Shown here piece after piece: positions 5,848-21,909 of a stretch of DNA of 46,941 nt. The number at the start of each line of letters is the position of its first letter. Position 1 is the first letter of the stretch. Position numbers and translations under genes: made by a program. The stretch is taken from contig JANNRA010000116.1 in NCBI GenBank assembly GCA_031401035.1, positions 1 through 46,941 of the forward strand. The letters are read 5' to 3'. The notes beneath the pieces were generated by a model. It was not told the origin of the DNA. It was given only the letters and a program-made list of their open reading frames with translations, and searched no databases. Origin of the DNA: a bacterium (lineage in GTDB: Bacteria; Desulfobacterota; Binatia; HRBIN30; CADEER01).

Positions 5848-5857
5848 AGAAGACACC

Positions 5858-5920: not shown

Positions 5921-5938
5921 GAATAGTCGTTCGCTTCC

Positions 5939-7150
5939 ATGACCCGCATCGCCATCACCGGCCTCGGCAGCATCAACGCGCTTGGCGTCGGCGTCGCGGC
6001 GTTCGATGCCGGATTGCGCGCCGGGCGCTGCGGCATCGGGCCGCTGACGCGCTTCGCCGCTGACGGTTACCGTGTCGCCTGCGCGGCGGAAGCGCCGCCG
6101 CCGCCGCGCCTACCGGGAGTATCAGCGCGGGCGGCGCGGCGCTGGTCGTTGACGACGCGCCTGGCGCTGGCGGCGGCGGACGAGGCGTGGCGCGCTGCCG
6201 GTCTGGCGGACGGCGCCGCCTGCGGCGTCGTGCTCGGCACCACCACCGGCGGCATGGCCGGCGGCGAGGAGAGCTATCGACTGGAAGCGATCGGGGCGGA
6301 GGAACGCACCGCGTTGGCGAGCTGGCTCGAAACGCCGGTGGCGGTGCCGACCGACACCGTCGCGACGCTGATCGGCAGTCGTGGGCCGCGCCTGACGGTG
6401 TCGACGGCATGCTCCGCGGGCGCCAACGCCCTCGGTATCGGCGCCGATTGGATTCGCGCCGGGCGCGCCGCGGTCGTGCTGTGCGGCGGCGCCGAATCGC
6501 TGTGCCGCATGACGTATTCCGGCTTCAACAGCCTGCAGGCCCTCGACCGAGTGCCCTGCCGGCCGTTCGACCGCCAGCGCGCCGGACTGTCGCTCGGCGA
6601 GGGTGCGGCGCTGTTCGTGTTGGAGGACTGGAGCGCCGCGACGGCGCGCGGGGCGCGCATCCTCGGCGAGTTGCTCGGGTACGGCGTCAGTGCCGACGCC
6701 TATCACCTCACCCAGCCGCGCCCGGACGGCGCCGGCGCCGTGCTCGCCATGCGACGCGCCCTCGCGGATGCCGGCGTCGCGGCGGCGGCGATCGACTACG
6801 TCAACGCGCACGGCACCGGCACGCCGCTCAACGACGTCGCCGAGACGCGCGCGATCAAGGCCGTGCTCGGCGCCCGGGCGACGGCGGTGCCGGTGTCGTC
6901 GACCAAGTCGCAGGTCGGCCACTGTCTCGCCGCCGCCGGCGCCATCGAGGCGCTGGCGGCGCTGCTGGCGGCGCGCGGCGGCTTCGTGCCGGCGACCGTG
7001 ACGCTGCGCGACGCGGACCCGGAGTGCGACCTCGACTACGTGCCCGGACACAGTCGCGCCGCCGCGCTGCGCACGGTTCTGTCGAACTCGTACGGCTTCG
7101 GCGGCAACAACACGAGCCTCGTCCTGCGGGCGCCGGAGGCCGGCGCGTGA
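5939..7150 (+). CDS. Beta-ketoacyl synthase (KS, FabF-like) with intact triad
   Basis: Motifs STACSAGANALG, NAHGTGTPLND and KSQVGHCLAAAG. Confidence 0.85.
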   Translation: MTRIAITGLGSINALGVGVAAFDAGLRAGRCGIGPLTRFAADGYRVACAAEAPPPPRLPGVSARAARRWSLTTRLALAAADEAWRAAGLADGAACGVVLGTTTGGMAGGEESYRLEAIGAEERTALASWLETPVAVPTDTVATLIGSRGPRLTVSTACSAGANALGIGADWIRAGRAAVVLCGGAESLCRMTYSGFNSLQALDRVPCRPFDRQRAGLSLGEGAALFVLEDWSAATARGARILGELLGYGVSADAYHLTQPRPDGAGAVLAMRRALADAGVAAAAIDYVNAHGTGTPLNDVAETRAIKAVLGARATAVPVSSTKSQVGHCLAAAGAIEALAALLAARGGFVPATVTLRDADPECDLDYVPGHSRAAALRTVLSNSYGFGGNNTSLVLRAPEAGA

Positions 7151-8346
7151 GCGACCCGGTAGCGGTCACCGGCGTCGGCATCGTCAGTCCGATCGGCATC
7201 GGCGCGCGCCAGTTCTGGCAGGCCCTCGCCGCCGGCCGCTCCGGCATCGCGCCGGCGGCGGGGCTGGCCGGGCCCGACGGGCTGCCGACGCTCGCCGCCG
7301 CGGTGGGCGACTTCGCGGCGCGCGAGTTCATCACCTCGAGCCACTATCGGCGCATGGATCCGTTGTCGCGCATGGTGGTCGCCGCCTGCCGCATGGCCCT
7401 GGACGACGCCGACGCCGGCCCCGACCTCGACGTCGCGCGCACCGGCATCGTCGTCGGCTCCGCCATCGGCAATGCCTCGGAGTCGGCACAACACCTCGAC
7501 CGGCTGTTTCTGAAGGGGCCGGCGGCGGTGAGTCCGATGCTCTTTCCCAACCTGGTGCTCAACGCGCCGGCGAGCTACGCGGCGATGGAGTTCGGCTTCA
7601 CCGGCGTCAACTTCACCGTCGCGCAGGCGGAGATCTCCGGCGAGACGGCGATCGCGCTCGGCGTCGATGCGGTGCGCAGCGGCCGCGCCGACCGGGTGCT
7701 CGCCGGCGGCGGCGACGACCTGGCGCCGATCCTGCTCCGCACCCTGCATCGCAGCCGCGCCCTCGCCGGCCAGCGCGGCGGGCGCGAGTGGGCAAGCCCC
7801 TACGACGTGGCGCGCAGCGGTCTGGTGGCCGGTGCGGGCGCGGCGATGCTGGCCCTCGAACCGCTCGCCCGCGCCCGCCGCCGCGGCGCCCCGGTGTACG
7901 CCTGCATCGTCGGCAGCACCGCCTGGGCGGTGCCGGCGCCGCCGTACGGCTGGCCGTCGCGCGCCCCGGCGTCGCTGGCGCCGCTCGCGGCGCTGTGCGG
8001 TGCCGCGCCGATCGACCTCGTCTGCGGCGGCGCCAACTCGACCACGACGCTCGACGCCTGCGAGTTGGCGCTGTTCGACGCGCTCGCGCCGGTGCGCGGC
8101 GCGACCCTGACGTCGATCAAGGGCGCCATCGGCGAGTTCGGAGCCGCCGGGGCGCTGACCGTCGCCGCCGCCTGCCTGGCATTGCGCGAACAAGTCGTGC
8201 CGCCGCTCTGCGCGCTGGAGAGCGCGGCGCCGACCGGGCTGCGCCTGGCGGCACGACAGGCGCAGCCGGCGTGTCTGCGCCGCGCCCTCGTGCACGGCCT
8301 CGCCCGCGGTGGCGCGGCGGCGGCGCTGCTGCTGGAAGTGGCCTGA
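7147..8346 (+). CDS. KS-beta / chain-length-factor-like protein with Gln in place of the catalytic Cys
   Basis: GTGA stop/start overlap with the upstream KS; VAQAEISG at the active-site position and KGAIGEFGAAG replacing the His motif; the upstream 960 nt of track ORF 6187..8346 is out-of-frame Arg-rich junk. Confidence 0.75.
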   Translation: MSDPVAVTGVGIVSPIGIGARQFWQALAAGRSGIAPAAGLAGPDGLPTLAAAVGDFAAREFITSSHYRRMDPLSRMVVAACRMALDDADAGPDLDVARTGIVVGSAIGNASESAQHLDRLFLKGPAAVSPMLFPNLVLNAPASYAAMEFGFTGVNFTVAQAEISGETAIALGVDAVRSGRADRVLAGGGDDLAPILLRTLHRSRALAGQRGGREWASPYDVARSGLVAGAGAAMLALEPLARARRRGAPVYACIVGSTAWAVPAPPYGWPSRAPASLAPLAALCGAAPIDLVCGGANSTTTLDACELALFDALAPVRGATLTSIKGAIGEFGAAGALTVAAACLALREQVVPPLCALESAAPTGLRLAARQAQPACLRRALVHGLARGGAAAALLLEVA

Positions 8347-8403
8347 ATCGCCCCCGATTCCCGCTTGCGCCGCCGATTGGCCAGGGGTGGTGGTCCGATG
8401 CAA

Positions 8404-8428
8404 GAGGCGCGGACGGGGCCGCGCCCTC
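8404..8428. terminator. Hairpin between convergent genes (candidate bidirectional terminator)
   Basis: gcgcgg acgggg ccgcgc stem-loop in the 93-bp gap between the KS-beta stop (8346) and the minus-strand radical SAM stop (8440). Confidence 0.35.
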
Positions 8429-8439
8429 CAGCTCGGAGT

Positions 8440-9597
8440 TTAGGCTGGCGGCGGGAGGTAGTTCTCGATCGCCTCGCCCGGCCGCAGGTGGTCCGCCAGC
8501 ACCGCCTCGAAGGGGCGCTGATCGAGGACCTCGAACTGGCTGGCGTCGAGGGGGAAACGCGCGCCGTCCGCGGTATACGGCGCCACCGCCGCCGAACCGG
8601 CCGACAACACGGTCACCAGCGGCACCAACAACCGCTGCATCGCAGCCGGCTCACGCGTCGTCAGGACGATCTTCGCCTCGGGCAGGCCGCACGACAGGAT
8701 CGACACCAGGCGGATGAACGTCGCGTCGTCGGCGCCGCGCTGGTTGGCACGGCCGGCGATCTGACGCAGGCGCGGCACCGACAGATAGACCTCCATGCCA
8801 GCGTCGAGCAGGTGGCGGGCATGCAGAGCGAGGGCGACGAGCTCGAAGCCGAGGTCGGGGTTGAGGCCGACCAGGATGCCGGGGTTGGCGACGCGCAGGC
8901 CGGCGGCGCGGGCGCGATCGAAGTTGCCCAGGCGGCGGTCGTAGTCGGCGCGCGGATTGCCGGCCGCGGTGCCCATGAAGCGCGCGTAGTGGGGCCGCGA
9001 GTAGGTTTCCTGGAAAGTGCACATGGTCAGCTTGGCGGCGACGGCGCCGTCGGGTCGGCGAGCGAGGGCGTCGAGCAGCAGCGGATACTCGTCGGCGTCG
9101 AGCGAGCCGACGTTGATCAGTACGTGCCGGAAGGCGCGCGCCTGCGTCGCGTGCAACGCTTGGTTCACCTGCGCCAGCACCGGCGCGCGCCGCTCGGCGC
9201 GGTACTCGCCGGTGAGCAGCGCGACGCCGTACATGCCGCGCCGGCGCAGGACATCGAGCTGGTCCGCGATGGTCGCGGCGTCGACCGTCGTGCGGCGCAG
9301 CGCCGCGTTGTCATGGCGCATACCGCACATCCGGCACTCGGCGTCGCAGGTATTGGTCAGGTACAGCGGCGAGAAGGTCTCCAGGCGTGTCGGTCGGTGG
9401 GTGCGCGCGGCACGGGCCAGGGCGTACAGCGCGTCGGCGTCGAGCGGCGCCGTCCACAAGATCGCCAGGTCGTCGACGGCGAGGGGCGCGCCGGCGCGGG
9501 CGCGGCAGACGACCTCGTGACGAACCGCCGTCGGCGCCGCGGCGGCGGCGCGCAGGCGGGCGCTGACGTCGCTCGCGGCGAGGCGGAAGTGCATCAT
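8440..9597 (-). CDS. Radical SAM enzyme of the ThiH/HydG/BioB-like subfamily
   Basis: YLTNTCDAECRMC (CxxxCxxC preceded by Y-x-T/S-N-x-C as in the ThiH/HydE/BioB group); 385 aa. Confidence 0.7.
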   Translation of the reverse strand: MMHFRLAASDVSARLRAAAAAPTAVRHEVVCRARAGAPLAVDDLAILWTAPLDADALYALARAARTHRPTRLETFSPLYLTNTCDAECRMCGMRHDNAALRRTTVDAATIADQLDVLRRRGMYGVALLTGEYRAERRAPVLAQVNQALHATQARAFRHVLINVGSLDADEYPLLLDALARRPDGAVAAKLTMCTFQETYSRPHYARFMGTAAGNPRADYDRRLGNFDRARAAGLRVANPGILVGLNPDLGFELVALALHARHLLDAGMEVYLSVPRLRQIAGRANQRGADDATFIRLVSILSCGLPEAKIVLTTREPAAMQRLLVPLVTVLSAGSAAVAPYTADGARFPLDASQFEVLDQRPFEAVLADHLRPGEAIENYLPPPA

Positions 9598-9726
9598 GTG
9601 GTGCCCTCGCTAACCTTCGCCAGGGAGTCGGTCAACGTGTCGCGCGGCCATTTCGGGCCGCCCCCTCGGTCGCGCCTGTTGGCGCGCTCGGCTAGGCTCC
9701 GCCGCGTGCCCGCGCCCAGTCACGCC

Positions 9727-10521
9727 ATGTCGGTCGATGTCGAGGACTGGTTTCACGACGGCGGCCTGGCGCCGGCCGCGCCGACAGCGCACCGGGTCGA
9801 ACGCAACACCGACGCGCTGCTGGAGCTGTTCGCCGCCGCCGGCGCGCGGGCGACGTTCTTCGTCCTCGGCGACGTCGCCGCCCGTCACCCGCAGCTGATC
9901 GGCCGCATCGCCGCCGGCGGGCACGAGATCGCCAGTCACGGCTACGCGCACCAGCACCTGACGCGCCAGCTGTGGCGCGAGTTCCGCGCCGACGTCGAAC
10001 GCGCCCGCCTGCTGCTCGAGGACCGCGTCGGCGCCGCGGTGCGCGGCTACCGGGCGCCCTATTTCGCCATCCAGGCCGGCGTGCGCTGGCCGATCGAGCA
10101 GATCGCCGCGGCCGGCTACGGCTACGACTCCAGCCTGCTGCCGATGGGCCGCCCGCCGGGACTCGAGCTGGTCTGCCCGCGCGCCCCGTACCGCCATCAC
10201 AATGGCCTCTGGGAGGTACCGGTGGCGGTGCTGCAACTGGGGCGCTTCTGGCATCTGCCGCTGGCGAGCGGCTGGGGCCTGCGTCTGATGCCGCCGCGCC
10301 TGCTGCGACGCGGGCTGGCGCGCTTCGAGCGCGACGTCGGGTCGGGCGTATTCTATCTGCACCCGTGGGAGCTCGATGCCGATTCGCCGTGCGGGCCGGG
10401 TCCCTGGCGCTGGGCGCTGCGCGTCGGCCGCGGCCGGCTGGCGGAGCGCCTCGCGGCGCTGCTGGGCGAGCGGACGTTCGTGCCGATCCGCGACGTGTTT
10501 CCGGAGACGCAGGGCGGATGA
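9727..10521 (+). CDS. Polysaccharide deacetylase, CE4/NodB fold, PEP-CTERM-locus-type subfamily
   Basis: N-terminal MSVDVEDWFH and GHEIASHGYAH motifs; the upstream part of track ORF 8365..10521 overlaps the opposite-strand radical SAM and is rejected. Confidence 0.75.
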   Translation: MSVDVEDWFHDGGLAPAAPTAHRVERNTDALLELFAAAGARATFFVLGDVAARHPQLIGRIAAGGHEIASHGYAHQHLTRQLWREFRADVERARLLLEDRVGAAVRGYRAPYFAIQAGVRWPIEQIAAAGYGYDSSLLPMGRPPGLELVCPRAPYRHHNGLWEVPVAVLQLGRFWHLPLASGWGLRLMPPRLLRRGLARFERDVGSGVFYLHPWELDADSPCGPGPWRWALRVGRGRLAERLAALLGERTFVPIRDVFPETQGG

Positions 10522-10540
10522 GAGGTGTTGTGTCGGGTGC

Positions 10541-10585
10541 GAATCCCCTCACCCTGACCCTCTCGCTGCTGGAGAGGCGACCTTG
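10541..10585. repeat. Palindromic intergenic repeat, family copy 2 (half element)
   Basis: atcccctcaccctgaccctctcgctgctggagaggcgaccttg; near-identical to 2473..2516. Confidence 0.7.
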
Positions 10586-10648
10586 GGCCGCAGCGCGCGG
10601 CTTGCGTGCGTTTCGGCTGCGGCGGGGTGTGGGGATCGGACGCGCTCC

Positions 10649-11647
10649 ATGAAGGCCGCACTCCCGCTGCTCGTCGGCGGCGCGCTGTGTGCGCTGCTGC
10701 TCTGGTGGTTCGGCGTCGACGGCGTCGTCGCGGCGCTGCGCCAGGCGCGCCCGCTCGGGCTGGCGTGGTACGCGATCCTCTCCGCCCTCGTCCTCCTCCT
10801 GCTCGCCGTCCGCTGGCGGCTCGTCGCGCGGGCCCTCGGCGGCGCACCGCCGCTGGCGCGGCTGGCCGCGGCGCGTCTCGCCGGCGACGCGGTCGGCGCG
10901 CTGCTGCCGCTGACGCGCCTGGGCGGCGACCCCCTGCGTGCCGTCCTGGTGCGCGGCGCGGCGCCGTCGCTGGCGGCGGCCGGCGCCGGCGTCGCCATCG
11001 ACCGCCTGCTCGAGCTGATCGGCAACATGGTCGCCGCCATCGCCTATGTCACCGTCTTCGCGCTGACCCGCGCCGACGCCGCCACCCCGGCGCCGCGGTC
11101 GCTGGGCATCGCCATGGCGGTGCTGCTCGTGGTGCTCGCCGTACAACTGCTCGCCCTGGCGCGCGGCCACCGACCGTTGGCGCCGCTGTATGGCGCCCGC
11201 GTTCGGCGCCTGGCGCCGCGCCTGACGCCGTGGTTCGACGGACTGCGGCGCGTCGAGGACCATCTGCAGACCTTCTTCCAAGCCCACCGGCGCGCCTTCG
11301 TCGCCGGTCTCGCCTGCGCCGTCGGTACCGAGCTGCTGATCATCGCCCAGTACCACGCCCTGCTCGCCGCCTTCGGCATCGCCCTCGACCTGCCGGTGCT
11401 GTTGCTGGTCCTGCTCGGCGGCGGCCTGGCGCGCGCCGTGCCGCTGCCGGCCGGGCTCGGTGCGCTCGAAGCGGCGCAGGTCCTCGTCGTCGGCGCCAGC
11501 ACCGGCCGCGCCGATCTCGGTTTCGTCGTCGGTGTGCTGGTGCGCCTGCACGAGACGCTGCTGTTGCTCATCGGACTGGCGGCGCTGGCGTGGTGCGGGG
11601 CGTCGCCGATGCGACAGGCGGCCGTGGCGCGCGAGGCCAGCCGGTGA
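10649..11647 (+). CDS. Flippase-like / lysylphosphatidylglycerol-synthase-TM-region-like integral membrane protein (UPF0104 family)
   Basis: 8-10 predicted TM helices and a GDxxRxxLxRG-like motif (LTRLGGDPLRAV); start taken at MKAALPLL from the track frame. Confidence 0.6.
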   Translation: MKAALPLLVGGALCALLLWWFGVDGVVAALRQARPLGLAWYAILSALVLLLLAVRWRLVARALGGAPPLARLAAARLAGDAVGALLPLTRLGGDPLRAVLVRGAAPSLAAAGAGVAIDRLLELIGNMVAAIAYVTVFALTRADAATPAPRSLGIAMAVLLVVLAVQLLALARGHRPLAPLYGARVRRLAPRLTPWFDGLRRVEDHLQTFFQAHRRAFVAGLACAVGTELLIIAQYHALLAAFGIALDLPVLLLVLLGGGLARAVPLPAGLGALEAAQVLVVGASTGRADLGFVVGVLVRLHETLLLLIGLAALAWCGASPMRQAAVAREASR

Positions 11648-12198
11648 CCTCGGTCCTGCTCAGCATCGTCTTCGCGCTCGGCTGGCTGCCGCTGTTCGCC
11701 TTCCGCGCCGAAACCCTGACCGCGGCGTTGCCGCACTACTCCGCCGCCGAGCGCCTCTCGGTCTATGTCGCGCCACTGACCGTCGCCCTGCACGTCACGC
11801 TCGCCTGCCTGCTGGTGACGCAGGAGACGCCGCTGCCGCCGCTGCGCACGACGGCGGCGCTGGCGCTGTTCGCCGCCGCCCTCGCTTTCTGGTTCCGCGC
11901 CCGGGCGCAGATCGGTCCGCTGCGCAAGCGGCCGCTGCCCGACGAGCCGCCGCCGGTGCTGCGCCGCGACGGCCCCTTCGGCCTGGTGCGCAACCCGCTG
12001 TACCTGGCCTACCTCGGCGCCGCCGCCGCGCCGGCGCTGGTCGCGGCGCGGCCGCTCCTGCTGTTCACCTGGCTCATCTGCCTCGCGGCCCTGAGCGTCC
12101 GCGCGGCTCAGGAAGAAGGCCGCCTGCACGCCCAGCTCGGCCCCACCTACGCCGCCTACTGCCGCGAGGTGAAGCGCCTCATCCCCTTCGTGTGGTAG
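11644..12198 (+). CDS. Membrane methyltransferase of the ICMT/PEMT (isoprenylcysteine carboxyl / phospholipid methyltransferase) family
   Basis: GLVRNPLYLAY and C-terminal EEGRLHAQLGPTYAAYCREVKRLIPFVW motifs; GTGA overlap with the upstream gene. Confidence 0.65.
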   Translation: MTSVLLSIVFALGWLPLFAFRAETLTAALPHYSAAERLSVYVAPLTVALHVTLACLLVTQETPLPPLRTTAALALFAAALAFWFRARAQIGPLRKRPLPDEPPPVLRRDGPFGLVRNPLYLAYLGAAAAPALVAARPLLLFTWLICLAALSVRAAQEEGRLHAQLGPTYAAYCREVKRLIPFVW

Positions 12199-12209
12199 AG
12201 GGGCGCGGC

Positions 12210-13685
12210 ATGACGAGCGCTGGGCGCACCATCGTATTCTGCGAGCCGCCCTACCTGTTCTGGGATCGCCGCCGTGATCGGCTGCGGCAGGGCGAAGAGA
12301 CCATCCCGGGTATGGGCGTGCTGATGCTCGCGGCGGTGGCACGGCGGCGCGGCTATCGCGTCCACCTGCTCGACGCCAAACCGCAGGGCACGGCGCTCGA
12401 CGAGGTCTGCGCGCGCATCATCGCCCTGCGGCCGGACTATCTCGGCTTGTCGGCGACGACCATCTCGGTCACCAACGCGGCGCGTATCGCGGCGCGCGTC
12501 AAGGCGGCGCTGCCGGGGGTGGTGACGATCGTCGGCGGCGCCCATGTCAGCGCCATCCCCGAACGCACGCTCGACGCCTTCCCGAGTCTCGACTACGCCG
12601 TCGCCGGCGAGGGCGAGGTGGCGCTGTTCGCGTTGCTCGAGCACCTCGAACGCGGCGCGCCGCTCGACGACGTCGCCGGCGCCGTCTGGCGCCGCGACGG
12701 TCGCGCGGTGGCCAACCCGCGCGCGCCGTATATCGACGACCTCGACGCGCTGCCGGTGCCGGCCTGGGACCTGCTGCCCGACTTCCCGCACCGCTTTCAA
12801 CCCTCGCTGTTCAGCTATCCGCGCACGCCGGTGGCGACCCTGATCACCTCGCGCGGCTGCCCGTTCACCTGCGTCTTCTGCGACCGCTCGACCTCCGGTC
12901 GCAAGGGGCGCCTGCACGGCGTCGAGACCGTCGTCAGCCTGTGCGCCGACCTGGTCGGGCGCGGCGCGCGGCACATCATGTTCCTCGACGACCTGTTCAC
13001 CGTCCGCCAACGGCGCGTCGTCGAACTGTGCGAGGCGTTGCTTGCCGCCGACCTGCGCTTTTCGTGGAGCTGCAACAGCCACCCCAACCTGCTCGATCTG
13101 CCGACGCTGCGCCTGATGCAGCGCGCCGGCTGCTGGCAGATCGCCTACGGCATCGAGTCCGGCTCGCAGCGCGTGCTCGACACGGTCAAACGCGAGGTGC
13201 GCATCCCGCGCATGCGCGAGACGCTGCGCCTGACCCGCGCCGCCGGCATCCGCACCAAGGGCTACCTCATGCTCGGCCACCCGACCGAAACGCGCGAGAG
13301 TCTGGCCGAGACGGAGGCCTTCCTGCGCGTCGCCGAGCTCGACCTGTGCCAGATCACCAAGTTCACGCCCTACCCCGGCACACCGGCGTACCCGACCATC
13401 GCTCAGCACGGCGCCTTCAGCGAGGACTGGGAACGCATGAACGCCATGCAGTTCGTCTTCGTGCCGCACGGTCTGACGGTGGGTGAGCTCGAGCGCGCCT
13501 TCGACCGCTGCTACCGCACTTTCTACAGCCGCACGGACGTCCTCTGGGGCATGGCGAAGCTGATGGTCGGCGAGCCGCGCTTCATCGGCCGCATGGCCAG
13601 CTCGGCGGCGGTGTACCTCGGGGCGAAGCTGGCCGAGCCGGCGGCGCGGGCGGAGGCCCTGACAGGCTCGCCGGGCCTGAGGTGA
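12210..13685 (+). CDS. B12-binding-domain radical SAM enzyme (class B)
   Basis: N-terminal B12-binding Rossmann region followed by TSRGCPFTCVFCD (CxxxCxxC); 491 aa. Confidence 0.8.
   Translation: MTSAGRTIVFCEPPYLFWDRRRDRLRQGEETIPGMGVLMLAAVARRRGYRVHLLDAKPQGTALDEVCARIIALRPDYLGLSATTISVTNAARIAARVKAALPGVVTIVGGAHVSAIPERTLDAFPSLDYAVAGEGEVALFALLEHLERGAPLDDVAGAVWRRDGRAVANPRAPYIDDLDALPVPAWDLLPDFPHRFQPSLFSYPRTPVATLITSRGCPFTCVFCDRSTSGRKGRLHGVETVVSLCADLVGRGARHIMFLDDLFTVRQRRVVELCEALLAADLRFSWSCNSHPNLLDLPTLRLMQRAGCWQIAYGIESGSQRVLDTVKREVRIPRMRETLRLTRAAGIRTKGYLMLGHPTETRESLAETEAFLRVAELDLCQITKFTPYPGTPAYPTIAQHGAFSEDWERMNAMQFVFVPHGLTVGELERAFDRCYRTFYSRTDVLWGMAKLMVGEPRFIGRMASSAAVYLGAKLAEPAARAEALTGSPGLR
13556..13630. 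repeat. Copy A of a ~75-bp dispersed repeat (3' end of the radical SAM gene), repeated at 14893..14967
   Basis: ctgatggtcggcgagccgcgcttcatcggccgcatggccagctcggcggcggtgtacctcg versus cgatggtcggcgagccgcgcttcgtcggccgcagggccagcgcggcggcggtgtacctcg. Confidence 0.7.
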
Positions 13686-14103
13686 CAGGCCGCGCCGCCG
13701 GCCCCCTCGCCGCTGGTACATCACTACCGTCCGTGGCGTGCCACGTCGTATCGCTGAGACGACACCGAACGGCACCTGCTCTGCATCGCCTGCACCAGGG
13801 CGCGCGACCACCTCTGGGTGGCGACCGTCACGCCCGCTTCCGAGTCCCTCGAGACATGCAGGCACGCGGGCAAGAGGGTGCCACAGGGCCGGCGGACTCA
13901 CGAGCGCTACCGGTTGAGGTGCTTCTCGTAGGGCAACTGCCAGCGCTTGTAGGCGACCTCCATCGAACACTTGTACGCGGCATCTGAGGCGCTTGGCCGA
14001 CGTCAACCTTCCTTGCGAACCGTGTTGCGCTCGCCGCTGAACCCTAGCCGCAGGCCGACCGTACCCGGTAGACAGTCGTCCGTCACTGCCGTATAGGTAT
14101 AGC

Positions 14104-14418
14104 GTGTTCAGGTTCGTCGAGACGGCGCTCTTCACTCGCCTCGTCGATGGGTACCTGTCTGACGATGACTACCTCAAGCTCCAAGTGGCGCTCGCAGAGA
14201 ATCCCGAGCGGGGATCGGTCATTCCCGGGTCCAGCGGGGTGCGGAAGCTGCGCTGGGCTGCGCCGGGTCGAGGCAAGCGCGGAGGATACCGCGTGATCTA
14301 CTACTTGCGGTCACATGCCGGAGCGATTTGGATGCTGACGATGTACCCGAAGAACGTCGCCAACAGCATCCCGGCGCATGTCCTGCGGAAGATACGAAGG
14401 GAGATCGACGATGCGTAA
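14104..14418 (+). CDS. Type II toxin, RelE/HigB-like family (toxin-first arrangement)
   Basis: KRGGYRVIYY...AIWMLTMYPKN motif typical of HigB/RelE-like toxins; sits in a local low-GC island. Confidence 0.7.
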   Translation: MFRFVETALFTRLVDGYLSDDDYLKLQVALAENPERGSVIPGSSGVRKLRWAAPGRGKRGGYRVIYYLRSHAGAIWMLTMYPKNVANSIPAHVLRKIRREIDDA

Positions 14419-14689
14419 GAGCGGGAGGCGAGATGTTGGCGCTGAGATCCTCGAAGGCCTTCGACAGCTGAAGCGCGGAGAAATCGGGCGGGTCACGACC
14501 TTGCCCAGGGTAGCCGAAACACGGGCACGGATGGGGCTGTCGCAGGCGGAGTTTGCTCGCCTACTCGGAGTCTCCGTTCGAACTCTACAGGAATGGGAGC
14601 AGGGTCGCCGCGCCCCCTCGGGACCAGCACGCACCCTCCTGATCATCGCCCACAAGAATCCCCAGGCGTTGCTTGAGGTGGCGGCCTAA
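14411..14689 (+). CDS. HTH (XRE-type) antitoxin, HigA-like
   Basis: ATG at 14411 overlaps the toxin stop by 8 nt (ATGCGTAA); LSQAEFARLLGVSVRTLQEWEQG helix-turn-helix. Confidence 0.65.
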   Translation: MRKSGRRDVGAEILEGLRQLKRGEIGRVTTLPRVAETRARMGLSQAEFARLLGVSVRTLQEWEQGRRAPSGPARTLLIIAHKNPQALLEVAA

Positions 14690-14892
14690 CCCGGCGGGCA
14701 CCCCGATCAGGAGTTCGTCGATTCGACCCTCGGCATCCTGCGGTGGGTTAAAGACGACGAGGCCTGGTCTGGGCGGTCTTGTTTCAGACGTGGGCGGGAT
14801 CGTCTTCTGATGACGACAGGACCGTCTTCTGGCGCGGGCATCCGTGCTCCGGCAGGTCGGTGTAACCGCCCCAGCCGTCGCTACGCACCGTG

Positions 14893-14967
14893 GAGCCGAT
14901 GGTCGGCGAGCCGCGCTTCGTCGGCCGCAGGGCCAGCGCGGCGGCGGTGTACCTCGCGGCGAAGGTG
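14893..14967. repeat. Copy B of the radical SAM 3'-end repeat (relic; no longer in a gene's reading frame)
   Basis: About 85% identical to 13556..13630. The repeat frame (phase of 14881, not covered by any track ORF) reads ...EPMVGEPRFVGRRASAAAVYLAAK..., mirroring the radical SAM C-terminus. Confidence 0.65.
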
Positions 14968-15118
14968 CGCTGGCGGGGCGGGGCGCGCGAGCCCGTGCCG
15001 GCGGCGCCGGCGCGGTGACCGGACGCGGACCGACGCCATTCTCCATGCCGGACCCAGCGTCTCAGACCCAGCGTCGCACGTTTGCGGCGTTACCGGCGCG
15101 GTGCTAGCGGCGTCGCCG

Positions 15119-16801
15119 ATGCGCGGACGGAACGGATTCGTTTGGGCGCTGCCCGCACTGTGCCTCGGCGGCTGGCTCCTCTCCGGCTGCCTGCTGCTGC
15201 AGGGGCGGCACTGGGACGCGACGCGGACAACGGTGATCGAGCCGATCAACTCGGCCCTGCATCGCCACCTGCCGCGCGACATCAAAGCCAGGGATCTCGA
15301 TGCCATCGTGGCGCTCTACGACACCGCCACCGTCGGCGGTCTGAGCTGGGAGGCGCCGCGCGACATCTCCGCCGGCTTCGCCGAGCAGCGGTTGCGCTGG
15401 GACGGACCGGCCGCTGACGAGCCCGTCCGCCAGCGCTACGCGCGCCTGCTGGCGGAATTCGCCACCATCGAGCGCGCCGAGGTGCGCATCCACCGCATCG
15501 GCTGGCACGAGGCCGCGGCGGCCGGCTACCCGGCGGACGTGCGCGTCCTGGTGCGCGGCGTCGGTCCCGACGGGACGCGGCGCATGCTCGATCAGCGCAG
15601 CCGCATGTGGCTCGACCGGCGCGGCGGTGAGTGGCGCATCACCGGCGAGACGGTTTCCAGCCGGGAGATGGTGAGCACGGCGCAGCCGCGCTTCAGCGTC
15701 GTCACCGAGGAGGCGCGGCTGGTCGATGTCCACGACACCGCCGGGTCGCCGGTCTTCCGCCTCATCGGCGATCTCGCCGCCAGTTCCGGCGCGGCGGTCG
15801 CCGATATCGATTGCGACGGCTTCGAGGACGTGGCGCTGTTCAGCACCGATCGCCTGCGGCTCTATCGTAACAACGCCGACGGCACCTTCGCCGACGTCAG
15901 CGCCGCCATGCAGGTGCCGACGCCGCTCCCCCTCGCCGGCACCGGCCTGGTGTTTTTCGACGCCGACAACGACGGCGACCCCGACCTCTGGCTGTCCGGC
16001 ATCCACGGCGACCGCGTCTTGCGCAACGACGGGTGCCGCGCCTTCGTCGACATCACCACCGCCGCCGGCATCGACGCGCGTCCCTGGTCGAGCATGCCGC
16101 TGGTCGCCGACTACGATCGCGACGGCTTCCTGGACGTCTACGTGGTGCGCATGGGCGACCATGCGGAGAAGGCGCCGGAACCGAACTGGGACGCCCGCAA
16201 CGGCGAGGGCGACAGCCTCTACCGCAACAACGGCGACGGCACCTTTACCGACGCCACGCAGGCCGCCGGCATCGCCGAGACCGGTTGGGGCCTGGCCGGC
16301 GCCTGGGGCGACTACGACGGCGACGGCGACCCGGACGTTTACGTCGGCAACGAGTTCGGCACCAACGCCCTCTACCGCAACAACGGCGACGGCACCTTCA
16401 CCGACGTCGCCGCGCCAGCCGGCGTGCTCGATCGCGGCGCCGCCATGGGCGTCGCCTGGGGCGACGCCGACAACGACGGCGACCTCGATCTGTTCGTCGC
16501 CAACATGTACGCCAACTCGCGCTGGGCTCTCGTCCACCCCGAGTTTCCGCCGCCGGTTCCCTGGTACTTCGGCTGGGTGCCGCGCGCCGACGTCGATGCC
16601 ATCACCGACGAACTGACGCGCGGCAACTCGCTGTTGCGCAACAACGGCGACGGCACTTTCACCGACGTCAGCGACGCCGCCGGGGTGCGCGACGGGCAGT
16701 GGGGGTGGGGCGCGGAGTTCGTCGACTACGACAACGACGGCTGGCTCGACGTCTTCGCGACCAACGGATTCGTCACCGGGCCGAACCCGGACGATTTATG
16801 A
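15119..16801 (+). CDS. CRTAC1/ASPIC-family FG-GAP/VCBS-repeat lipoprotein, N-terminal part (terminated by an in-frame TGA)
   Basis: Lipobox signal MRGRNGFVWALPALCLGGWLLSGC; six or more YRNNGDGTFTDV FG-GAP-like repeats; stop at 16799-16801 is followed in the same frame by the next ORF. Confidence 0.7.
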   Translation: MRGRNGFVWALPALCLGGWLLSGCLLLQGRHWDATRTTVIEPINSALHRHLPRDIKARDLDAIVALYDTATVGGLSWEAPRDISAGFAEQRLRWDGPAADEPVRQRYARLLAEFATIERAEVRIHRIGWHEAAAAGYPADVRVLVRGVGPDGTRRMLDQRSRMWLDRRGGEWRITGETVSSREMVSTAQPRFSVVTEEARLVDVHDTAGSPVFRLIGDLAASSGAAVADIDCDGFEDVALFSTDRLRLYRNNADGTFADVSAAMQVPTPLPLAGTGLVFFDADNDGDPDLWLSGIHGDRVLRNDGCRAFVDITTAAGIDARPWSSMPLVADYDRDGFLDVYVVRMGDHAEKAPEPNWDARNGEGDSLYRNNGDGTFTDATQAAGIAETGWGLAGAWGDYDGDGDPDVYVGNEFGTNALYRNNGDGTFTDVAAPAGVLDRGAAMGVAWGDADNDGDLDLFVANMYANSRWALVHPEFPPPVPWYFGWVPRADVDAITDELTRGNSLLRNNGDGTFTDVSDAAGVRDGQWGWGAEFVDYDNDGWLDVFATNGFVTGPNPDDL

Positions 16802-17344
16802 ATGGAGATGTTTGACGGCGTCGGTCGACGCCGCGATCAGAAGTCCGGACAACTGGTGAGCATCGGCGAGAACAGCCTCAACGGCAACGAGCGCGACTGC
16901 CTGTTCCGCAACAACCGCGACGGCACCTTCACCGACACCGCCTACGTCAATCGCGCCGATCGCGTCGAGGACGGACGCGGCGTCGCGCTGCTCGACTACA
17001 ACCTCGACGGCGCCATGGACATCGTCTTGCGCAACTACCGTCAACCGGCGCAGTTGCTGCGCAACGACGGCGGCGCCGGCCACTGGTTGCAGGTCCGGCT
17101 GGTCGGGACGCGCAGCAATCGCGACGCGGTCGGCGCCCGCGTCACGGTGCGCAGCGGCGGCGTGCAACAGACGCGCGAAGTGCATGCCGGCTCTGGCTAC
17201 CTGTCGGCCTCCTCGCTGGCGCAGCACTTCGGCCTCGGCGGCGCCACGCGCGTCGAGGCGGTCGAGGTGGCCTGGCCGTCCGGCAGCCGATCGCAACTCT
17301 CCGACGTCGGCGTCGATCAACGCCTGACGATCCGCGAGGAGTGA
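16802..17344 (+). CDS. CRTAC1/ASPIC family C-terminal (UnbV_ASPIC-like) domain, same frame as the upstream gene
   Basis: ATG immediately after the TGA and in frame; content (LFRNNRDGTFTD, then an ASPIC-like tail) is the expected continuation of the upstream protein. Confidence 0.6.
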   Translation: MEMFDGVGRRRDQKSGQLVSIGENSLNGNERDCLFRNNRDGTFTDTAYVNRADRVEDGRGVALLDYNLDGAMDIVLRNYRQPAQLLRNDGGAGHWLQVRLVGTRSNRDAVGARVTVRSGGVQQTREVHAGSGYLSASSLAQHFGLGGATRVEAVEVAWPSGSRSQLSDVGVDQRLTIREE

Positions 17345-17360
17345 GCGGCGCACGCGCCGC
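17345..17360. terminator. Short GC hairpin between convergent genes
   Basis: gcggcg cacg cgccgc, lying between the stops at 17344 (+) and 17369 (-). Confidence 0.35.
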
Positions 17361-17368
17361 GGCGCGCG

Positions 17369-18922
17369 TCATCGTGCCGATGGTCCGCTCGCCGTCCCGT
17401 CATAGTAGGCTTGGCACTTCGGCCAGAGGTGCGCCGCGACCGTGCGGCCCAGGCGCAGACCCGCGACGTTGTCGGCCTGGATGTGGTAGCCGCCCATGAC
17501 GCGCGAGATGCCGGCCATCTCCGCGACGACGCTGAAAGTCGGCAGTGGCAGCGTCACGCGGCAGCTCTCGGCAGCGGCGGCGGGCGCGCGCCCCCGCACC
17601 GCCTGTATCGCCTCGCAGGCATAGCCGCGTTCGGTTTCGGAGCCCGCCACGCGCACCTCTTCGTCGCCGAACTGGTCGCTGCCGGTGAAGCGTTCGAGGA
17701 TGGACGCGCAGGCGCCGCTGACGGCGCTGTGGCCGGAGACGTAGCCGGGGAACGGCGGCGTGATGAACGTGGCGGGAGAGTATGGCATCCACTGCGCGCC
17801 CGTGATCGGGCCGACGCCCTTGCCGGGTCCGAGCCAGCCGTCGATCGGCTGGTCGCGGTAGTAGTGGCGAACGAGGGTCCACGGGCGCGACGAATCGTAG
17901 TAGCGCTTGCTCTCCCAGGCGGCGATGAAGGCGTCCATGGCGGTGTTGGCGACGCAGAAGTACAGCTTCACGTCGCGATCCATGTCCAAGCGGTCGCGGC
18001 GCGAGACCGCCTGCGCGAAGCGCAGCCAGTGCCCCGATTGTCCGGTCGAGCGCGGGCCGTCGCGCATGAACTCGACGATCGCCCTCTGCTCGGGCGTGAG
18101 GGTGGCGTTGAAGCGGAGGCACTCGTCCACTTCCGCCTTGAGCTGCGCCGTGCCGACGCGCGGCGGTGGCGGCGGGCGGAACATGTCGGCGCGCTCCAGG
18201 CCGAAGGGTCGCACCCGGTACCAGAAGGGGGTGAGGAAGTTCGGCGTGACCGTACCGCCCGTGCCGTCGGCGAAGGCGATTGGCTGCCAGCGGTCCGCAT
18301 CGCGGATCTCCGAGACGGGGTTGAGCGGGGTGTAGAACGTGTAATCCGCGTACGCCTCGCCGTTGCCGCCGATCTCGTCGCCGAGTTGGTTGGCGCCGTC
18401 GTGGTGGCGGGCATCGAGCAGCGCCGCCGCGCAGCGGTTGCCGATGCCCTGCGGCGTGGCGGGGTCGGTGGAGCGGTCGTTGACGTCGTAGCCCCACGCG
18501 CCCATCAGCGCCGTGATGTGGGTCGTCGTGACCGGATGCTGGTCAACGATGGCGCGATACGCCGCGAAGGCCATCGCCTTGCGCTTGTTGTCCGGCGTGC
18601 GTTCGGCGGCGGGCCGGCGCAGGCTGCCGCCGAACACCGTGCCGACGGCCTTCTCGTCGTAGCAGGCCCAGGCGTCGAACATCGCGGTCGCGACGATCGC
18701 CATCTGCCGCGACAGAATGGTCGGCCGCGGGCTGATGCGGACGACGTCGTCGGCGGCGTCCTCGAGCATCGCATCGAGGATGCGGTAGGTCGCCGACGGC
18801 TCGGCGCCACCCCAGTCTCGCGTCTGGGCCACGGTCGGGGTCGCCAGGAGGACGCCGACGAGGAGCGCGAGCAGGGCGCGCGCGCGCGGTCTCGGCAGGC
18901 GCCGCGCGCGCCCCCGGCGCAT
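17369..18922 (-). CDS. Secreted PAP2-superfamily enzyme, vanadium-dependent haloperoxidase-like (alternatively an acid phosphatase)
   Basis: Tat/Sec-like signal MRRGRARRLPRPRARALLALLVGVLLATPTVAQT; PAP2 motifs K-RYYDSS-RP, PGYVSGH and SRVMGGYHIQAD with haloperoxidase-like long spacing. An alternative upstream start at 19009 (MATLAMT...) would overlap the upstream gene. Confidence 0.65.
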   Translation of the reverse strand: MRRGRARRLPRPRARALLALLVGVLLATPTVAQTRDWGGAEPSATYRILDAMLEDAADDVVRISPRPTILSRQMAIVATAMFDAWACYDEKAVGTVFGGSLRRPAAERTPDNKRKAMAFAAYRAIVDQHPVTTTHITALMGAWGYDVNDRSTDPATPQGIGNRCAAALLDARHHDGANQLGDEIGGNGEAYADYTFYTPLNPVSEIRDADRWQPIAFADGTGGTVTPNFLTPFWYRVRPFGLERADMFRPPPPPRVGTAQLKAEVDECLRFNATLTPEQRAIVEFMRDGPRSTGQSGHWLRFAQAVSRRDRLDMDRDVKLYFCVANTAMDAFIAAWESKRYYDSSRPWTLVRHYYRDQPIDGWLGPGKGVGPITGAQWMPYSPATFITPPFPGYVSGHSAVSGACASILERFTGSDQFGDEEVRVAGSETERGYACEAIQAVRGRAPAAAAESCRVTLPLPTFSVVAEMAGISRVMGGYHIQADNVAGLRLGRTVAAHLWPKCQAYYDGTASGPSAR

Positions 18923-18990
18923 CAGCGAGGCCGGATGCCCGCCCCGCACCGGGGTGTCATCGACGCGGCTGATCAGGCCGCCGCCGCCGG

Positions 18991-20364
18991 TCATCGCAAG
19001 AGTCGCCATAGCTGCCCCTTGATCTTGCGCGCGCGCAGCTTCTGCAACACCTGCACGTTGGTCTTGATGCCGAGGCCGGGCACGATCCAGTTCGAGTGGC
19101 TGCGCGCGTAAGCCTCGATGCGCTCGATGAGGTGATCCTCGAGGCCGGGCGAGATGTAGAACTTCGGATGCAGGAGGTTGTCGTCGGCATCGATCTGGCC
19201 GTCGGCCAGGGCGATATCGACCATGCCGGTGCCGGGCAGGATGCGGATGCCGGTCAGGGCGACGACCGCGGTGGGCTTGAGCTCGTCCATCAGCGCGATC
19301 GTCTCGGTCACCGTCTGCTCGGTTTCGCCGGGTCCGCCGAAGATGAGGCTGTGGCAGAAGCGCAGGCCGTGCGCGTGGCACAGCGCCGAGGTGCGACGCA
19401 GGTCGGCGACGTCGAACTGCTTGCGCAGCTGCGCGATCATCGCCGGGGCGCCCGAGTCGGTGCCGAACTCGATGGCGCGACAGCCGGCGCGCGCCATCAG
19501 CGCGCACAGCTCGGCGTCGACGAACTTCGGGTTCAGGTACGCCGACCATTCGACGTCGAGCTGACGCGCCGCGATCTCCTCGCAGATCTCCTTGGCGTGC
19601 CGCATCGGCTGGTTGAAGATGTTGTCGACGAAGAACCAGTGCCGCACGCCGTCGTTCTCGCGCGCCGCCTGCAGCTCGTCGACCACCGCCGTCGCGGTGC
19701 GCATGCGGACCTTGGCGCCCTCGATCAATGGGTAGCTGCAGAAGACGCACTCGAAGATGCAGCCGCGCTTGGTCTGGATGTTCAGCGCGCCGCCGCGCTC
19801 GTAGTAGCGTTGCAGGTCGAAGCTGCGCCGCAACGGCACGCCGGTGCTGTCGAGCTGCTTGATGCGCGTCACCGACGTCACGCACGTCCCGCCGTTGACC
19901 GCCTCGCAACGATACTCGTCGGTCGAGCGCAGCGGGTGCCCGGCGGCGAGCTGCGCCAGCACCCAGGGGAACGCCAGCTCGCCCTCGCCGACGACGCCGA
20001 CGTCGGCGTGCAGGTAGTCCATGATCGCGCCGGGCATGACCGTGAACCCGGCGCCGCCGAGGATCACCGGCGCATCGCTGTGCGCGCGCACCGCGTCGAC
20101 CAGCGCCTTGTAGTCGTCGATGTACGAGGTGTTCTGCGGGTAGGCGGACGAATCGAGATTGCGCAGCGAGATCCCCACCACGTCGGGGGCGAACGCCGCG
20201 AGCTGCGTCGAGAGGGTCGGCTCAAGCGCGCCGAGGAAGCAGAGGTCGAGCGTCTCGACCTCGTGCCCATGCTGTTCCGCCACCGCCGCCATGTACGCCG
20301 CGCCGATCGGAAACACCGGGTCCGGCAGCTGCTCGGTATTGGCGGAGATCAGCAGAACGCGCAT
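18991..20364 (-). CDS. B12-binding-domain radical SAM enzyme
   Basis: MRVLLISANTEQ B12-binding N-terminus and TKRGCIFECVFCSYP cluster; 457 aa. Confidence 0.8.
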   Translation of the reverse strand: MRVLLISANTEQLPDPVFPIGAAYMAAVAEQHGHEVETLDLCFLGALEPTLSTQLAAFAPDVVGISLRNLDSSAYPQNTSYIDDYKALVDAVRAHSDAPVILGGAGFTVMPGAIMDYLHADVGVVGEGELAFPWVLAQLAAGHPLRSTDEYRCEAVNGGTCVTSVTRIKQLDSTGVPLRRSFDLQRYYERGGALNIQTKRGCIFECVFCSYPLIEGAKVRMRTATAVVDELQAARENDGVRHWFFVDNIFNQPMRHAKEICEEIAARQLDVEWSAYLNPKFVDAELCALMARAGCRAIEFGTDSGAPAMIAQLRKQFDVADLRRTSALCHAHGLRFCHSLIFGGPGETEQTVTETIALMDELKPTAVVALTGIRILPGTGMVDIALADGQIDADDNLLHPKFYISPGLEDHLIERIEAYARSHSNWIVPGLGIKTNVQVLQKLRARKIKGQLWRLLR

Positions 20365-20440
20365 GGGGTGTCACGGCCGCCGAGAGCCGAGTGGCGACTA
20401 CCATGGGGACCGCGGCCCTGTCCAAGTCGCGCCGAGCGCT

Positions 20441-21793: not shown

Positions 21794-21909
21794 GCCCCGC
21801 ACGTTGCGGGGCGCTCTCCGCGCAGTCAATGCCCCCGCGGCGCAGCCGGCGCGGCCGGCCGCCGGCCGGCTACCTTGCCCGGCGCGACGGCGGCGCGGTA
21901 CGGTCGCGC

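Follow-up and report, generated by a model that had tools for sequence, protein, structure and literature searches.

Gene content of the locus

The window analyzed here, a 46,941-nucleotide stretch of DNA from an uncultured Binatia bacterium, contains a B12-binding radical SAM (rSAM) gene whose protein is 91% identical to its closest relative (P0001). Past the stop codon of this gene lies DNA of lower GC content bearing a pair of small overlapping toxin and antitoxin genes, then a second copy of the rSAM gene's own 3′ end, and finally an FG-GAP repeat gene (Table 1). A sequence-only reading of this DNA had interpreted the arrangement as the footprint of an insertion that either duplicated or displaced the end of the rSAM gene.

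Table 1. Features of the rSAM locus, with positions in the window
Feature	Position	Strand	Basis
B12-binding radical SAM gene, 491 codons, chimeric by alignment	12210..13685	+	Pfam B12-binding 3.5e-22, Radical_SAM 1.6e-20
Repeat copy 1 (attL-like core), within the live rSAM gene, encodes MVGEPRFIGRMASSAAVYLGAK	13562..13629	+	63/68 identical to 14898-14965
Putative crossover block CGGCGGCGGTGTACCTCG, 18 nt identical	13603..13620	+	Mismatch partition versus L082, L049, L001, L002, L092
Substitute gene end LAEPAARAEALTGSPGLR plus stop, apparently insert-supplied	13630..13685	+	No alignment to empty site
Whole insert, 1268 bp	13630..14897 (13636-14893 by BLAST end points)	.	Absent from L081-L084
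UvrD-like helicase gene remnant, last 31 codons (DTERHLLCIACTRARDHLWVATVTPASESLE)	13761..13853	+	C-terminal matches to library proteins; in-frame stop precedes
Upstream region conserved with toxin–antitoxin genes	14015..14103	+	DNA identity to L087
HigB-2-type (RelE-superfamily) toxin gene, 104 codons, full length	14104..14418	+	PDB HigB-2, homologues
HigA-2-type HTH antitoxin gene, 92 codons	14411..14689	+	PDB HigA-2; Pfam HTH_3 1.3e-10
Right-hand non-coding part of insert; one weak terminator-like hairpin, 14762-14774	14690..14897	.	No ORF with family match
Repeat copy 2 (attR-like core), pseudogene relic	14898..14965	+	Repeat alignment, orthologue comparison
Displaced native gene end VRWRGGAREPVPAAPAR plus stop, 53-bp tail	14966..15018	+	Aligns to L082 tail MRRSESRESAPAAPAH plus stop, into intergenic region and FG-GAP gene
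FG-GAP repeat gene, native downstream neighbour of rSAM	15119..16801	+	Pfam FG-GAP_3 8.1e-46; 94% identical to L081-L084 neighbour

A direct repeat of the gene end

A repeat search of the window returned a 126-nt direct repeat, 13549-13674 versus 14885-15010, with 76% ungapped identity and a spacing of 1336. Embedded in it is a sharply conserved 68-bp core, in which the two copies are 92.6% identical. The recurrence of the last ~75 bp of the gene had been noted in the sequence-only reading at ~85% identity, with a partner at 14893-14967; the recurrence holds, at a higher identity than reported (68 of the 75 positions of 13556-13630, or 90.7%) and with a partner one base off, at 14892-14966. 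The same reading would have been undercut by a similarity below 70% confined to low-complexity GC codons, or by orthologous genomes carrying the same two copies; the identity is 91-93%, and orthologous genomes are single-copy. Because a 59-nt core pattern, with up to three mismatches allowed, matches only at the two repeat copies and nowhere in 100 dinucleotide-preserving shuffles, the repeat cannot be ascribed to GC-rich low complexity. It is real and non-random.

The two copies occupy distinct contexts. Copy 1 is part of the live gene and matches the single copy in the closest relative (L082, 9349-9427). Copy 2 lies outside any real gene, as the earlier reading had recognized, and still reads MEPMVGEPRFVGRRASAAAVYLAAKVRWRGGAREPVPAAPAR up to a stop in a mechanical 42-codon ORF (14890-15018). 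Three conserved residues are altered in it (I>V, M>R, and S>A), and the derived states are unique to copy 2 among orthologues. The DNA ahead of 14886 agrees with the native upstream region at 19/69 positions, the background level, and contains no rSAM-like sequence. The mismatches within the core split cleanly about an 18-nt identical block: leftward of it the orthologue-like bases are in copy 1, and rightward they are in copy 2. Mismatch density also changes at the left edge of the core, from 5/13 immediately outside it to 5/68 within (Fisher p 0.008, for boundaries picked post hoc).

An empty site in the closest relative

In the closest relative (L081-L084; five contigs, with the protein 91% identical), there is one copy of the core, and an FG-GAP gene lies 84 bp past the rSAM stop, with no toxin–antitoxin genes between the two. 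Judged by alignment, its locus is the empty site. To the left of the core, the empty site aligns to copy 1 only, and to the right, to copy 2 only; this alignment sets the polarity of the event: native DNA extends leftward from copy 1 and rightward from copy 2, and the 1268 bp between are inserted. An insertion is thereby confirmed, and of the two fates that the sequence-only reading had left open for the gene end, displacement stands and mere duplication does not. The relative's locus continues with two further B12-radical SAM genes downstream on the opposite strand. Beyond this relative, synteny downstream of the rSAM gene is lost: aromatic-lyase and halogenase genes occupy this position in L001 and L049, without an integrase.

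Neither a second copy of the gene end nor an intact element at the site was present in any of 80 genome loci of rSAM relatives. Viral contigs yielded no relative when queried with the gene end plus new tail, and only 39-45% relatives when queried with the toxin. A single metagenome scan for the gene end and new tail together recovered one ordinary orthologue (L092), and DNA and protein searches of a plasmid collection with the insert found no match. Since nothing comparable appeared in the viral contigs or the single metagenome scan, there is no evidence of any integrase that targets the rSAM gene.

A substitute end for the rSAM gene

Alignment to the empty site shows the rSAM gene to be native up to about 13629. 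Its last 18 codons and stop align to nothing in the empty site and derive, on this evidence, from the insert, which renders the C-terminus of the protein chimeric, as the sequence-only reading had suspected. That reading had also proposed comparing orthologues to decide which C-terminus is ancestral. The relic tail aligns to the relative's tail with a BLOSUM62 local score of 39, and all other orthologues score <=26, which supports the relic as the ancestral tail.

The new tail is not a wholly unrelated sequence. It is identical to the native tail at 28 of 57 nt (49%), where the in-phase coding background has a mean of 18 (sd 3.5) and a fraction of only 0.001-0.003 reaches 28. It spans 18 codons versus the native 17, and read-through would end within 16-19 codons with a chance of 3-5%. 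The similarity ends at the stop codon, as it does in e14/icd. These features lend moderate support to the view that the new tail is a diverged homologue of the native one rather than the product of random read-through. A comparison of tails among orthologues found no orthologue or donor carrying it. The new stop codon lies within a GC-rich hairpin of marginal significance (z -1.8). The rSAM gene ahead of the core was also checked for an imported, diverged donor tract, an idea rejected because identity to L082 is 0.89-0.97 over 13000-13600.

Composition and decay of the insert

Along a GC profile, the insert is lower than both flanks, in line with the sequence-only reading: 200-nt windows from 13800 to 14900 range over 0.595-0.68 versus 0.70-0.78 on either side (about 0.72), and the region is the second-lowest 1-kb GC bin of the contig (0.655). 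For the insert taken whole, GC is 0.66-0.68. There is no further copy of the insert in the window, which elsewhere has an 8.3-kb indel (22642-30990) with no integrase in it. No terminal inverted repeats mark the insert ends. Pfam and NCBIfam scans of the ORFs and translated frames of 13630-14897 revealed no integrase/recombinase, excisionase, transposase, or conjugation gene, and returned a UvrD_C_2 remnant and the toxin–antitoxin pair only.

The remnant, a feature beyond those of the sequence-only reading, is the tail end of a UvrD-like helicase gene. In an exhaustive representative search, 343 library proteins at E<=1e-3 match it by their C-terminal ends; the longer among the matching proteins carry Pfam UvrD_C / UvrD_C_2, and the C-terminus of P0246 is 77% identical to it. 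Its direct Pfam match is weak (UvrD_C_2, E 0.0083), and a word-indexed protein search with the fragment gave no candidates. Decay of the insert is thus visible in the reduction of a helicase gene to its 3′ remnant. A minus-strand peptide ending in MEVAYKRWQLPYEKHLNR plus a stop, at about 13900-14000, was rejected as a gene for want of a family match. The right-hand non-coding part folds no better than its shuffles (z -0.97) and has no attC-like structure; its terminator-like hairpin, when folded, is likewise no better than shuffles. No sigma-70-like promoter was found, and Rfam gave a single chance-level match only.

The RelE/HigB-like toxin and HTH antitoxin that the sequence-only reading had placed between the copies form, by homology, an intact type II pair of the HigBA-2 kind. 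The toxin matches PDB HigB-2 over residues 4-95 (5JA8, 5JA9, 9TV9; E 1.5e-20), and nearly all of its 3598 homologues are 104 aa long. Its PF06296 score of 22.9 bits falls under the cut-off of 27, but most of the homologues listed have PF06296 on record. The antitoxin matches PDB HigA-2 (5J9I, 5JAA; E 1.3e-11), with NCBIfam MqsA-family/NadS matches under cut-off. The toxin gene comes first and is overlapped by the antitoxin gene by 8 nt. Antitoxin partners of 92 aa occur in L087 and L088; for the antitoxin itself, neither the 92-aa nor the 103-aa form (two alternative starts) has a product on record. The stretch 14015-14696 has 82.5% DNA identity to L087 1908-2591, in which the gene ahead of the module is an unrelated one, and the conserved region that precedes the toxin gene is probably a promoter/operator. 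Relatives of the module adjoin an hsdR-like gene, a HipBA pair, or a fragment of an integrase accompanied by transposase and TIR-domain genes, all of them mobile or defence contexts.

Origin of the insert

The reading that we favour, with confidence somewhat short of even, is an integrative element with a substitute gene end (cf. e14 at icd) that decayed to an att-flanked remnant and was kept since losing a toxin–antitoxin pair is harmful. Foreign DNA would have entered the last ~120 bases of the rSAM gene by recombination within the shared 68-bp stretch, with the crossover probably in the 18-nt identical block. The enzyme would have stayed intact because the foreign DNA supplied a gene end of its own, 18 codons and a stop, while the native end was shifted downstream by 1.3 kb to become the pseudogene that is now decaying. 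Because the insert has no mobility gene, we infer its route of entry: it most likely arrived as a site-specific integrative element, presumably a larger one, whose attachment site mimicked the 3′ end of the gene. It would later have lost its integrase and nearly all else, reaching a CIME-like state bracketed by att-like repeats, with the helicase gene's tail end and the HigBA-2-type pair as survivors and the pair probably the last of them. As cells keep a stable toxin without its antitoxin, deletions of the pair, including those by recombination between the 68-bp repeats, would be counter-selected; passages in two reports describe toxin–antitoxin pairs as stabilizing integrated elements (PMC2654960, PMC5006074). 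Several observations count against an integrative element. The three core differences of copy 2 are all non-synonymous and to G, which neutral decay of a native relic fits equally; the right junction rests on one assembly, as both same-organism Logan contigs stop at 14617; and no intact element, donor, or mobility gene was found. If the integrative-element reading is correct, the insert is the ordinary scar of a decayed mobile element. A bolder version, which we regard as very improbable, holds that the 1.27-kb unit is a still-mobile miniature cassette, an att-bracketed HigBA-2 addiction module with a substitute gene end, moved in trans by an unseen recombinase targeting the Binatia rSAM 3′ end. 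If true, it would be the smallest kind of site-specific, gene-end-replacing toxin–antitoxin element.

A serious rival, albeit one that we consider unlikely, is one-ended homologous recombination with foreign DNA. Linear DNA of another Binatia lineage, in which a diverged rSAM 3′ end preceded the helicase remnant and the toxin–antitoxin genes, would have joined homologously within the 68-bp core on the left and illegitimately just upstream of the recipient core on the right, with no need for an integrase. Such homology-facilitated illegitimate recombination, which passages of one report document in several bacteria (PMC3240628), yields an identical topology and likewise a homologous new tail, and accords with an insert lacking an integrase. 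Copy 2 would be wholly native and its differences later decay; indeed, unique, non-synonymous changes all towards G are as expected of a neutral relic at 72% GC. However, a homologous anchor of only about 68 bp would have to suffice, the DNA upstream of the core shows no donor-derived tract, and the donor would need an rSAM end already abutting a truncated helicase gene, an arrangement not found in the 80 loci, the orthologue tails, or the metagenome scan. Alternatively, an unrelated fragment was captured while a break was repaired, or in some other illegitimate process, with a duplication of about 70-80 bp at the target, or was inserted after a tandem duplication; the new tail would then be read-through, and its likeness to the native tail chance. 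In favour of this, the insert is a patchwork of gene remnants lacking both mobility functions and terminal structure, and the tails share just 49% identity in GC-rich, Ala/Gly/Arg-rich sequence. Nonetheless, a tail similarity in the top 0.1-0.3% of in-phase comparisons, together with a length within one codon (3-5% chance), makes such a capture improbable, and duplication followed by insertion takes two steps and is less parsimonious. A target duplication of 68-79 bp is also too long for transposases, which typically duplicate 2-15 bp; to our knowledge, none makes one near this length. The insert was rejected as a transposon or insertion sequence for this reason and for its lack of inverted repeats and a transposase.

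Two further explanations were considered. That two places were mis-joined through a repeated antitoxin segment during assembly might be suspected from two independent Logan contigs with identical toxin that both end at window position 14617, and from the missing record of either antitoxin form. This would be an extremely improbable artefact: two sequencing runs bear out the left junction at 99.75-100% identity, and each half alone sets the toxin–antitoxin genes beside rSAM (left) or beside the relic and the FG-GAP gene (right), mutual neighbours in the relative, such that a mis-join would need two such inserts. The several B12-radical SAM genes of the cluster could instead suggest that copy 2 is the leftover of a tandem paralogous rSAM gene, mostly deleted or overwritten by the toxin–antitoxin genes. 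We give this practically no credence, as it is already contradicted by the single gene in the relative's empty site, to whose tail the relic tail is orthologous; besides, the 19/69 identity upstream of 14886 betrays no rSAM-like sequence, and the 80 loci contain no second copy.

Implications

The locus reveals no new mechanism and is a further case of a known kind of event. Its value lies in being a clean, fully resolved example, empty site included, of a biosynthetic gene that survives the entry of accessory DNA at its end, in a group known from metagenomes only. The annotated C-terminus of the rSAM protein is partly foreign by alignment, which matters when the protein is compared or expressed. 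The FG-GAP gene formerly lay close to the rSAM gene; the insert now separates the two and may have changed their co-expression. Lastly, the locus fits the idea that toxin–antitoxin pairs outlast the elements that brought them.

Comparison with known systems

In polymorphic toxin arrays (Rhs, CDI, T6SS effector-immunity orphans), recombination at a conserved stretch of the upstream gene brings in a new 3′ module and pushes the old end downstream, where it persists as an orphan headed by part of that stretch, much as here. Homology-facilitated illegitimate recombination is discussed for Vibrio cholerae T6SS arrays in a passage of one report (PMC5361080). Unlike these systems, the rSAM protein is no toxin, the displaced 17-codon tail has no domain, and the toxin–antitoxin pair is a separate operon instead of a fused tip with an immunity gene. 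The HigBA-2 pair of V. cholerae (5JA8, 5JAA, 5J9I) is an integron cassette. It shares with the Binatia pair homologous partners, a toxin-first order, overlapping genes, and residence in accessory DNA; the Binatia pair differs in having neither an attC-like structure nor an integron. Interpretation of the insert as an integron gene cassette was rejected, given the absence of an attC fold (z -0.97) and of an integron integrase in the examined parts of the window.

The CIMEs of S. thermophilus that are related to ICESt1/ICESt3 sit at the 3′ end of fda, and the Binatia insert has a comparable position, at the 3′ end of a gene with a housekeeping or biosynthetic role. CIMEs are elements without integration and transfer genes that keep attL and attR (PMC5704250); congruently, att-like repeats are kept here and the insert has no mobility genes. 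The Binatia repeats differ in being 93% rather than 100% identical, and no cognate ICE, IME, or integrase is known for the site. No ICE- or IME-specific features survive in the insert, and a related intact element was not found in the 80 loci, the viral contigs, or the one metagenome scan.

Unlike e14, which retains its integrase and excises, the Binatia insert is only 1.27 kb long and has no tyrosine or serine recombinase gene in the scanned frames of 13630-14897, such that we infer integrase action. Its replacement tail is also strongly diverged (about 50% nt identity), and its host is uncultured. In several respects, the insert parallels e14 and phage 21 at icd of E. coli (icd' = icdC), where integration likewise takes place inside the 3′ end of a protein-coding gene and the element supplies a slightly different replacement end that keeps the gene intact; here the reading frame stays open through the new 18-codon tail, a probable replacement of this kind. 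In both settings, direct repeats bound the insert, and relatives have an unoccupied, single-copy site (attB). Just as e14 supplies the icd end and leaves a 163-bp icd' pseudogene (PMC6379469), the displaced native end persists here as a short downstream pseudogene in direct repeat, 68 bp plus a 53-bp tail.

A displaced gene end

The repeat search of the window returned a direct repeat of 126 nt (13549-13674 and 14885-15010; 76% ungapped identity, spacing 1336), within which position-by-position comparison sharply delimits a core that is identical at 63 of 68 bases. A 59-nt core pattern, allowed up to 3 mismatches, matched at the two copies only, and shuffles gave 0. The sequence-only reading had proposed that the end of the radical SAM gene recurs downstream; the recurrence stands (68/75 over its 75-nt span), although the partner begins at 14892, not 14893. 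As it had also stated, the second copy lies outside any real gene by ORF check, reading MEPMVGEPRFVGRRASAAAVYLAAKVRWRGGAREPVPAAPAR*, and the GC profile is lower between the copies, at 0.60-0.68 versus 0.70-0.78 on either side, making this the second-lowest 1-kb bin in the 46.9-kb contig.

Features of the radical SAM locus and its insert
Feature	Position	Strand	Length	Description
Radical SAM gene	12210-13685	+	491 codons	B12-binding and Radical_SAM domains
Copy 1 core	13562-13629		68 bp	inside the radical SAM gene
New tail	13630-13685		18 codons	last codons of the present gene
Insert	13630-14897			DNA between the copies
Helicase remnant	13761-13853	+	last 31 codons	DTERHLLCIACTRARDHLWVATVTPASESLE; in-frame stop before it
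Toxin gene	14104-14418		104 codons	homologous to HigB-2, E 1.5e-20
HTH antitoxin gene	14411-14689		92 codons	homologous to HigA-2, E 1.3e-11
Copy 2 core (relic)	14898-14965		68 bp
Native tail	14966-15018			relic end after copy 2
FG-GAP repeat gene	start 15119			downstream of insert and relic

The polarity of the event is given by the closest orthologue, P0001 (91% identity), for which there are five contigs, from different samples. In four of these (L081-L084), an interval of 84 bp separates the radical SAM gene from the FG-GAP gene that comes next, and the toxin-antitoxin genes are absent. When the window was compared by BLAST with one of them, L082, a single 79-bp stretch (L082 9349-9427) matched both 13557-13635 and 14894-14972, and the 1258 bp between the two matches were absent. 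The four-way alignment is unambiguous: left of the core, copy 1 alone aligns to this empty site, and right of the core copy 2 alone does so, through the tail, stop codon and intergenic region into the FG-GAP gene. Therefore, the relic tail VRWRGGAREPVPAAPAR is ancestral. Its local score is 39 against the P0001 end ...MRRSESRESAPAAPAH and at most 26 against any other orthologue, which answers the earlier question of which C-terminus came first. The suspicion that the present C-terminus might be chimeric was correct, as the last 18 codons, LAEPAARAEALTGSPGLR*, are insert-derived. Among 80 loci in more distant relatives, none carried the gene end twice. Taken jointly, three points are firmly established: an insertion took place, the native end was displaced by it, and the C-terminus seen today is chimeric.

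Gene context

The relatives of the radical SAM protein come almost exclusively from Candidatus Binatia MAGs, and its best NCBIfam match, HpnJ, falls far below the cut-off (187 vs 577.6 bits). The surrounding cluster (about 4000-22600) is conserved in L081-L084 and looks like a lipid-modification cluster, comprising two ketoacyl synthases, a short-chain dehydrogenase, a polysaccharide deacetylase, an LPG_synthase_TM protein, FG-GAP/UnbV_ASPIC proteins, a PAP2 protein, two more B12-radical SAM genes and acyltransferases. Relative to L082, identity is 88-98% except in a short unalignable block at 10531-10680 (0.25) and a more diverged stretch at 11056-11730 (0.73-0.81), both around the genes that precede radical SAM, namely the LPG_synthase_TM region and the 184-codon gene after it. 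The direct repeats at 15860-16499 (about 44-131 nt, families D1 and D3-D5) are not mobile DNA; they lie within the downstream gene and encode its FG-GAP protein repeats. An 8.3-kb stretch at 22642-30990 is likewise missing from the closest relative (L082 17204 to 17320); its products are a Band_7/SPFH protein, a large BTAD-AAA_16-TPR regulator and a Calx-beta protein, its GC falls to 0.63 at 23001-24000, and no integrase was found in it.

Contents of the insert

An exhaustive HMMER search with the remnant DTERHLLCIACTRARDHLWVATVTPASESLE retrieved 343 proteins at E ≤ 1e-3, aligned by their extreme C-termini (e.g., ...DTERHLLYVACTRARDHLWVSGVEPASEFLDDL); the longer matches bear UvrD_C or UvrD_C_2 domains, and identity to the C-terminus of one match, P0246, is 77% over 31 residues. 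By homology, the remnant is what is left of the 3′ end of a UvrD-like helicase gene, which makes the insert a probable decayed fragment of something larger. Many library matches are short proteins whose N-terminal parts derive from unrelated gene ends (an ABC_tran end in P0246, EamA in P0385), so helicase stumps beside unrelated genes may be recurrent.

The toxin and HTH antitoxin that had been read between the copies form a pair clearly homologous in both partners to the structurally solved HigB-2/HigA-2; the genes overlap by 8 nt, and their lengths are usual for their many homologues. Together with about 90 bp of DNA before it (14015-14696), the module shares 82.5% DNA identity with a metagenome contig; there an hsdR-like gene precedes it and the rest of the insert is absent. 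Elsewhere, relatives of the module adjoin a HipBA pair or belong to an island that also has TIR-domain genes and fragments of an integrase and of transposases.

Searches of the insert found no integrase or transposase, no terminal inverted repeats and no Rfam family; folding of its right flank gave no unusual structure, and the window holds no further copy of it. A perfect 13-nt GC-only inverted repeat (13637-13649/13690-13702) brackets the new radical SAM stop codon, with an RNA fold z of only -1.8. An 8-nt inverted repeat, GGCCAGCT/AGCTGGCC (13596-13603/13627-13634), read by eye from the sequence, brackets the putative crossover block; its right arm straddles the native/insert boundary.

Origin of the insert

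The order native-left, core, foreign, then foreign, core, native-right is that expected if the gene recombined with a foreign molecule in which the core was also present. The new tail matches the native tail at 28 of 57 positions, compared with 18 ± 3.5 in codon-phase-matched comparisons in real window genes, where at least 28 occurs in 0.1-0.3%. Its length is within one codon of the native one (random read-through chance 3-5%). Mismatches in the core fall into two groups on either side of one identical 18-nt block, CGGCGGCGGTGTACCTCG (13603-13620), with orthologue-like bases to its left in copy 1 and to its right in copy 2. Tail similarity, tail length and mismatch pattern suggest a foreign molecule with its own diverged homologue of the entire gene end, as opposed to arbitrary DNA. 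An integrative element is our leading, if tentative, candidate for that molecule. If unrelated DNA had been captured with a long target duplication, tail similarity and length match would both have to be coincidence, which makes this reading improbable.

Ranked next below the integrative element, as a serious but less likely rival, is one-ended homologous recombination with DNA from another Binatia lineage (homology-facilitated illegitimate recombination; PMC3240628), which would give the same picture with no integrase needed. The lack of any recombinase in the insert favors it, as do the three changes in copy 2: each is unique, non-synonymous at a conserved residue and directed towards G, which fits a neutral relic. 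However, its anchor would be very short and no imported diverged tract lies upstream of the core. The empty site contradicts the idea that copy 2 was left over from a tandem paralogue since deleted. Mis-assembly is unlikely: taken independently, both halves of the contig put toxin-antitoxin sequence beside one of two genes that are neighbors in the relative. The identical toxin and the left junction also occur on two Logan contigs of the same organism from different sequencing runs (L085 and L086); both contigs end at the same base, 14617, inside the antitoxin gene, and the right junction is known from the window contig alone. A branch in the assembly graph or a drop in coverage may explain this shared stop.

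Comparison with known systems

Toxin-antitoxin pairs are known to stabilize integrated elements (PMC2654960, PMC5006074), and the pair appears to be the insert's sole intact survivor, as addiction predicts. The two 68-bp repeats would be a ready substrate for deletion, which would restore the native gene, yet remove the antitoxin gene; addiction may thus be why the insert persists. The phenomenon is modest in significance, and we infer its agent from the pattern. That pattern is the one known from prophage e14 in the E. coli icd gene, where the element supplies the gene end, and the displaced end is left as a pseudogene (the 163-bp icd′; PMC6379469). Gene-end-replacing integration, a decayed att-flanked remnant and a toxin-antitoxin pair as survivor are all known already; only the target gene and host lineage are new here.
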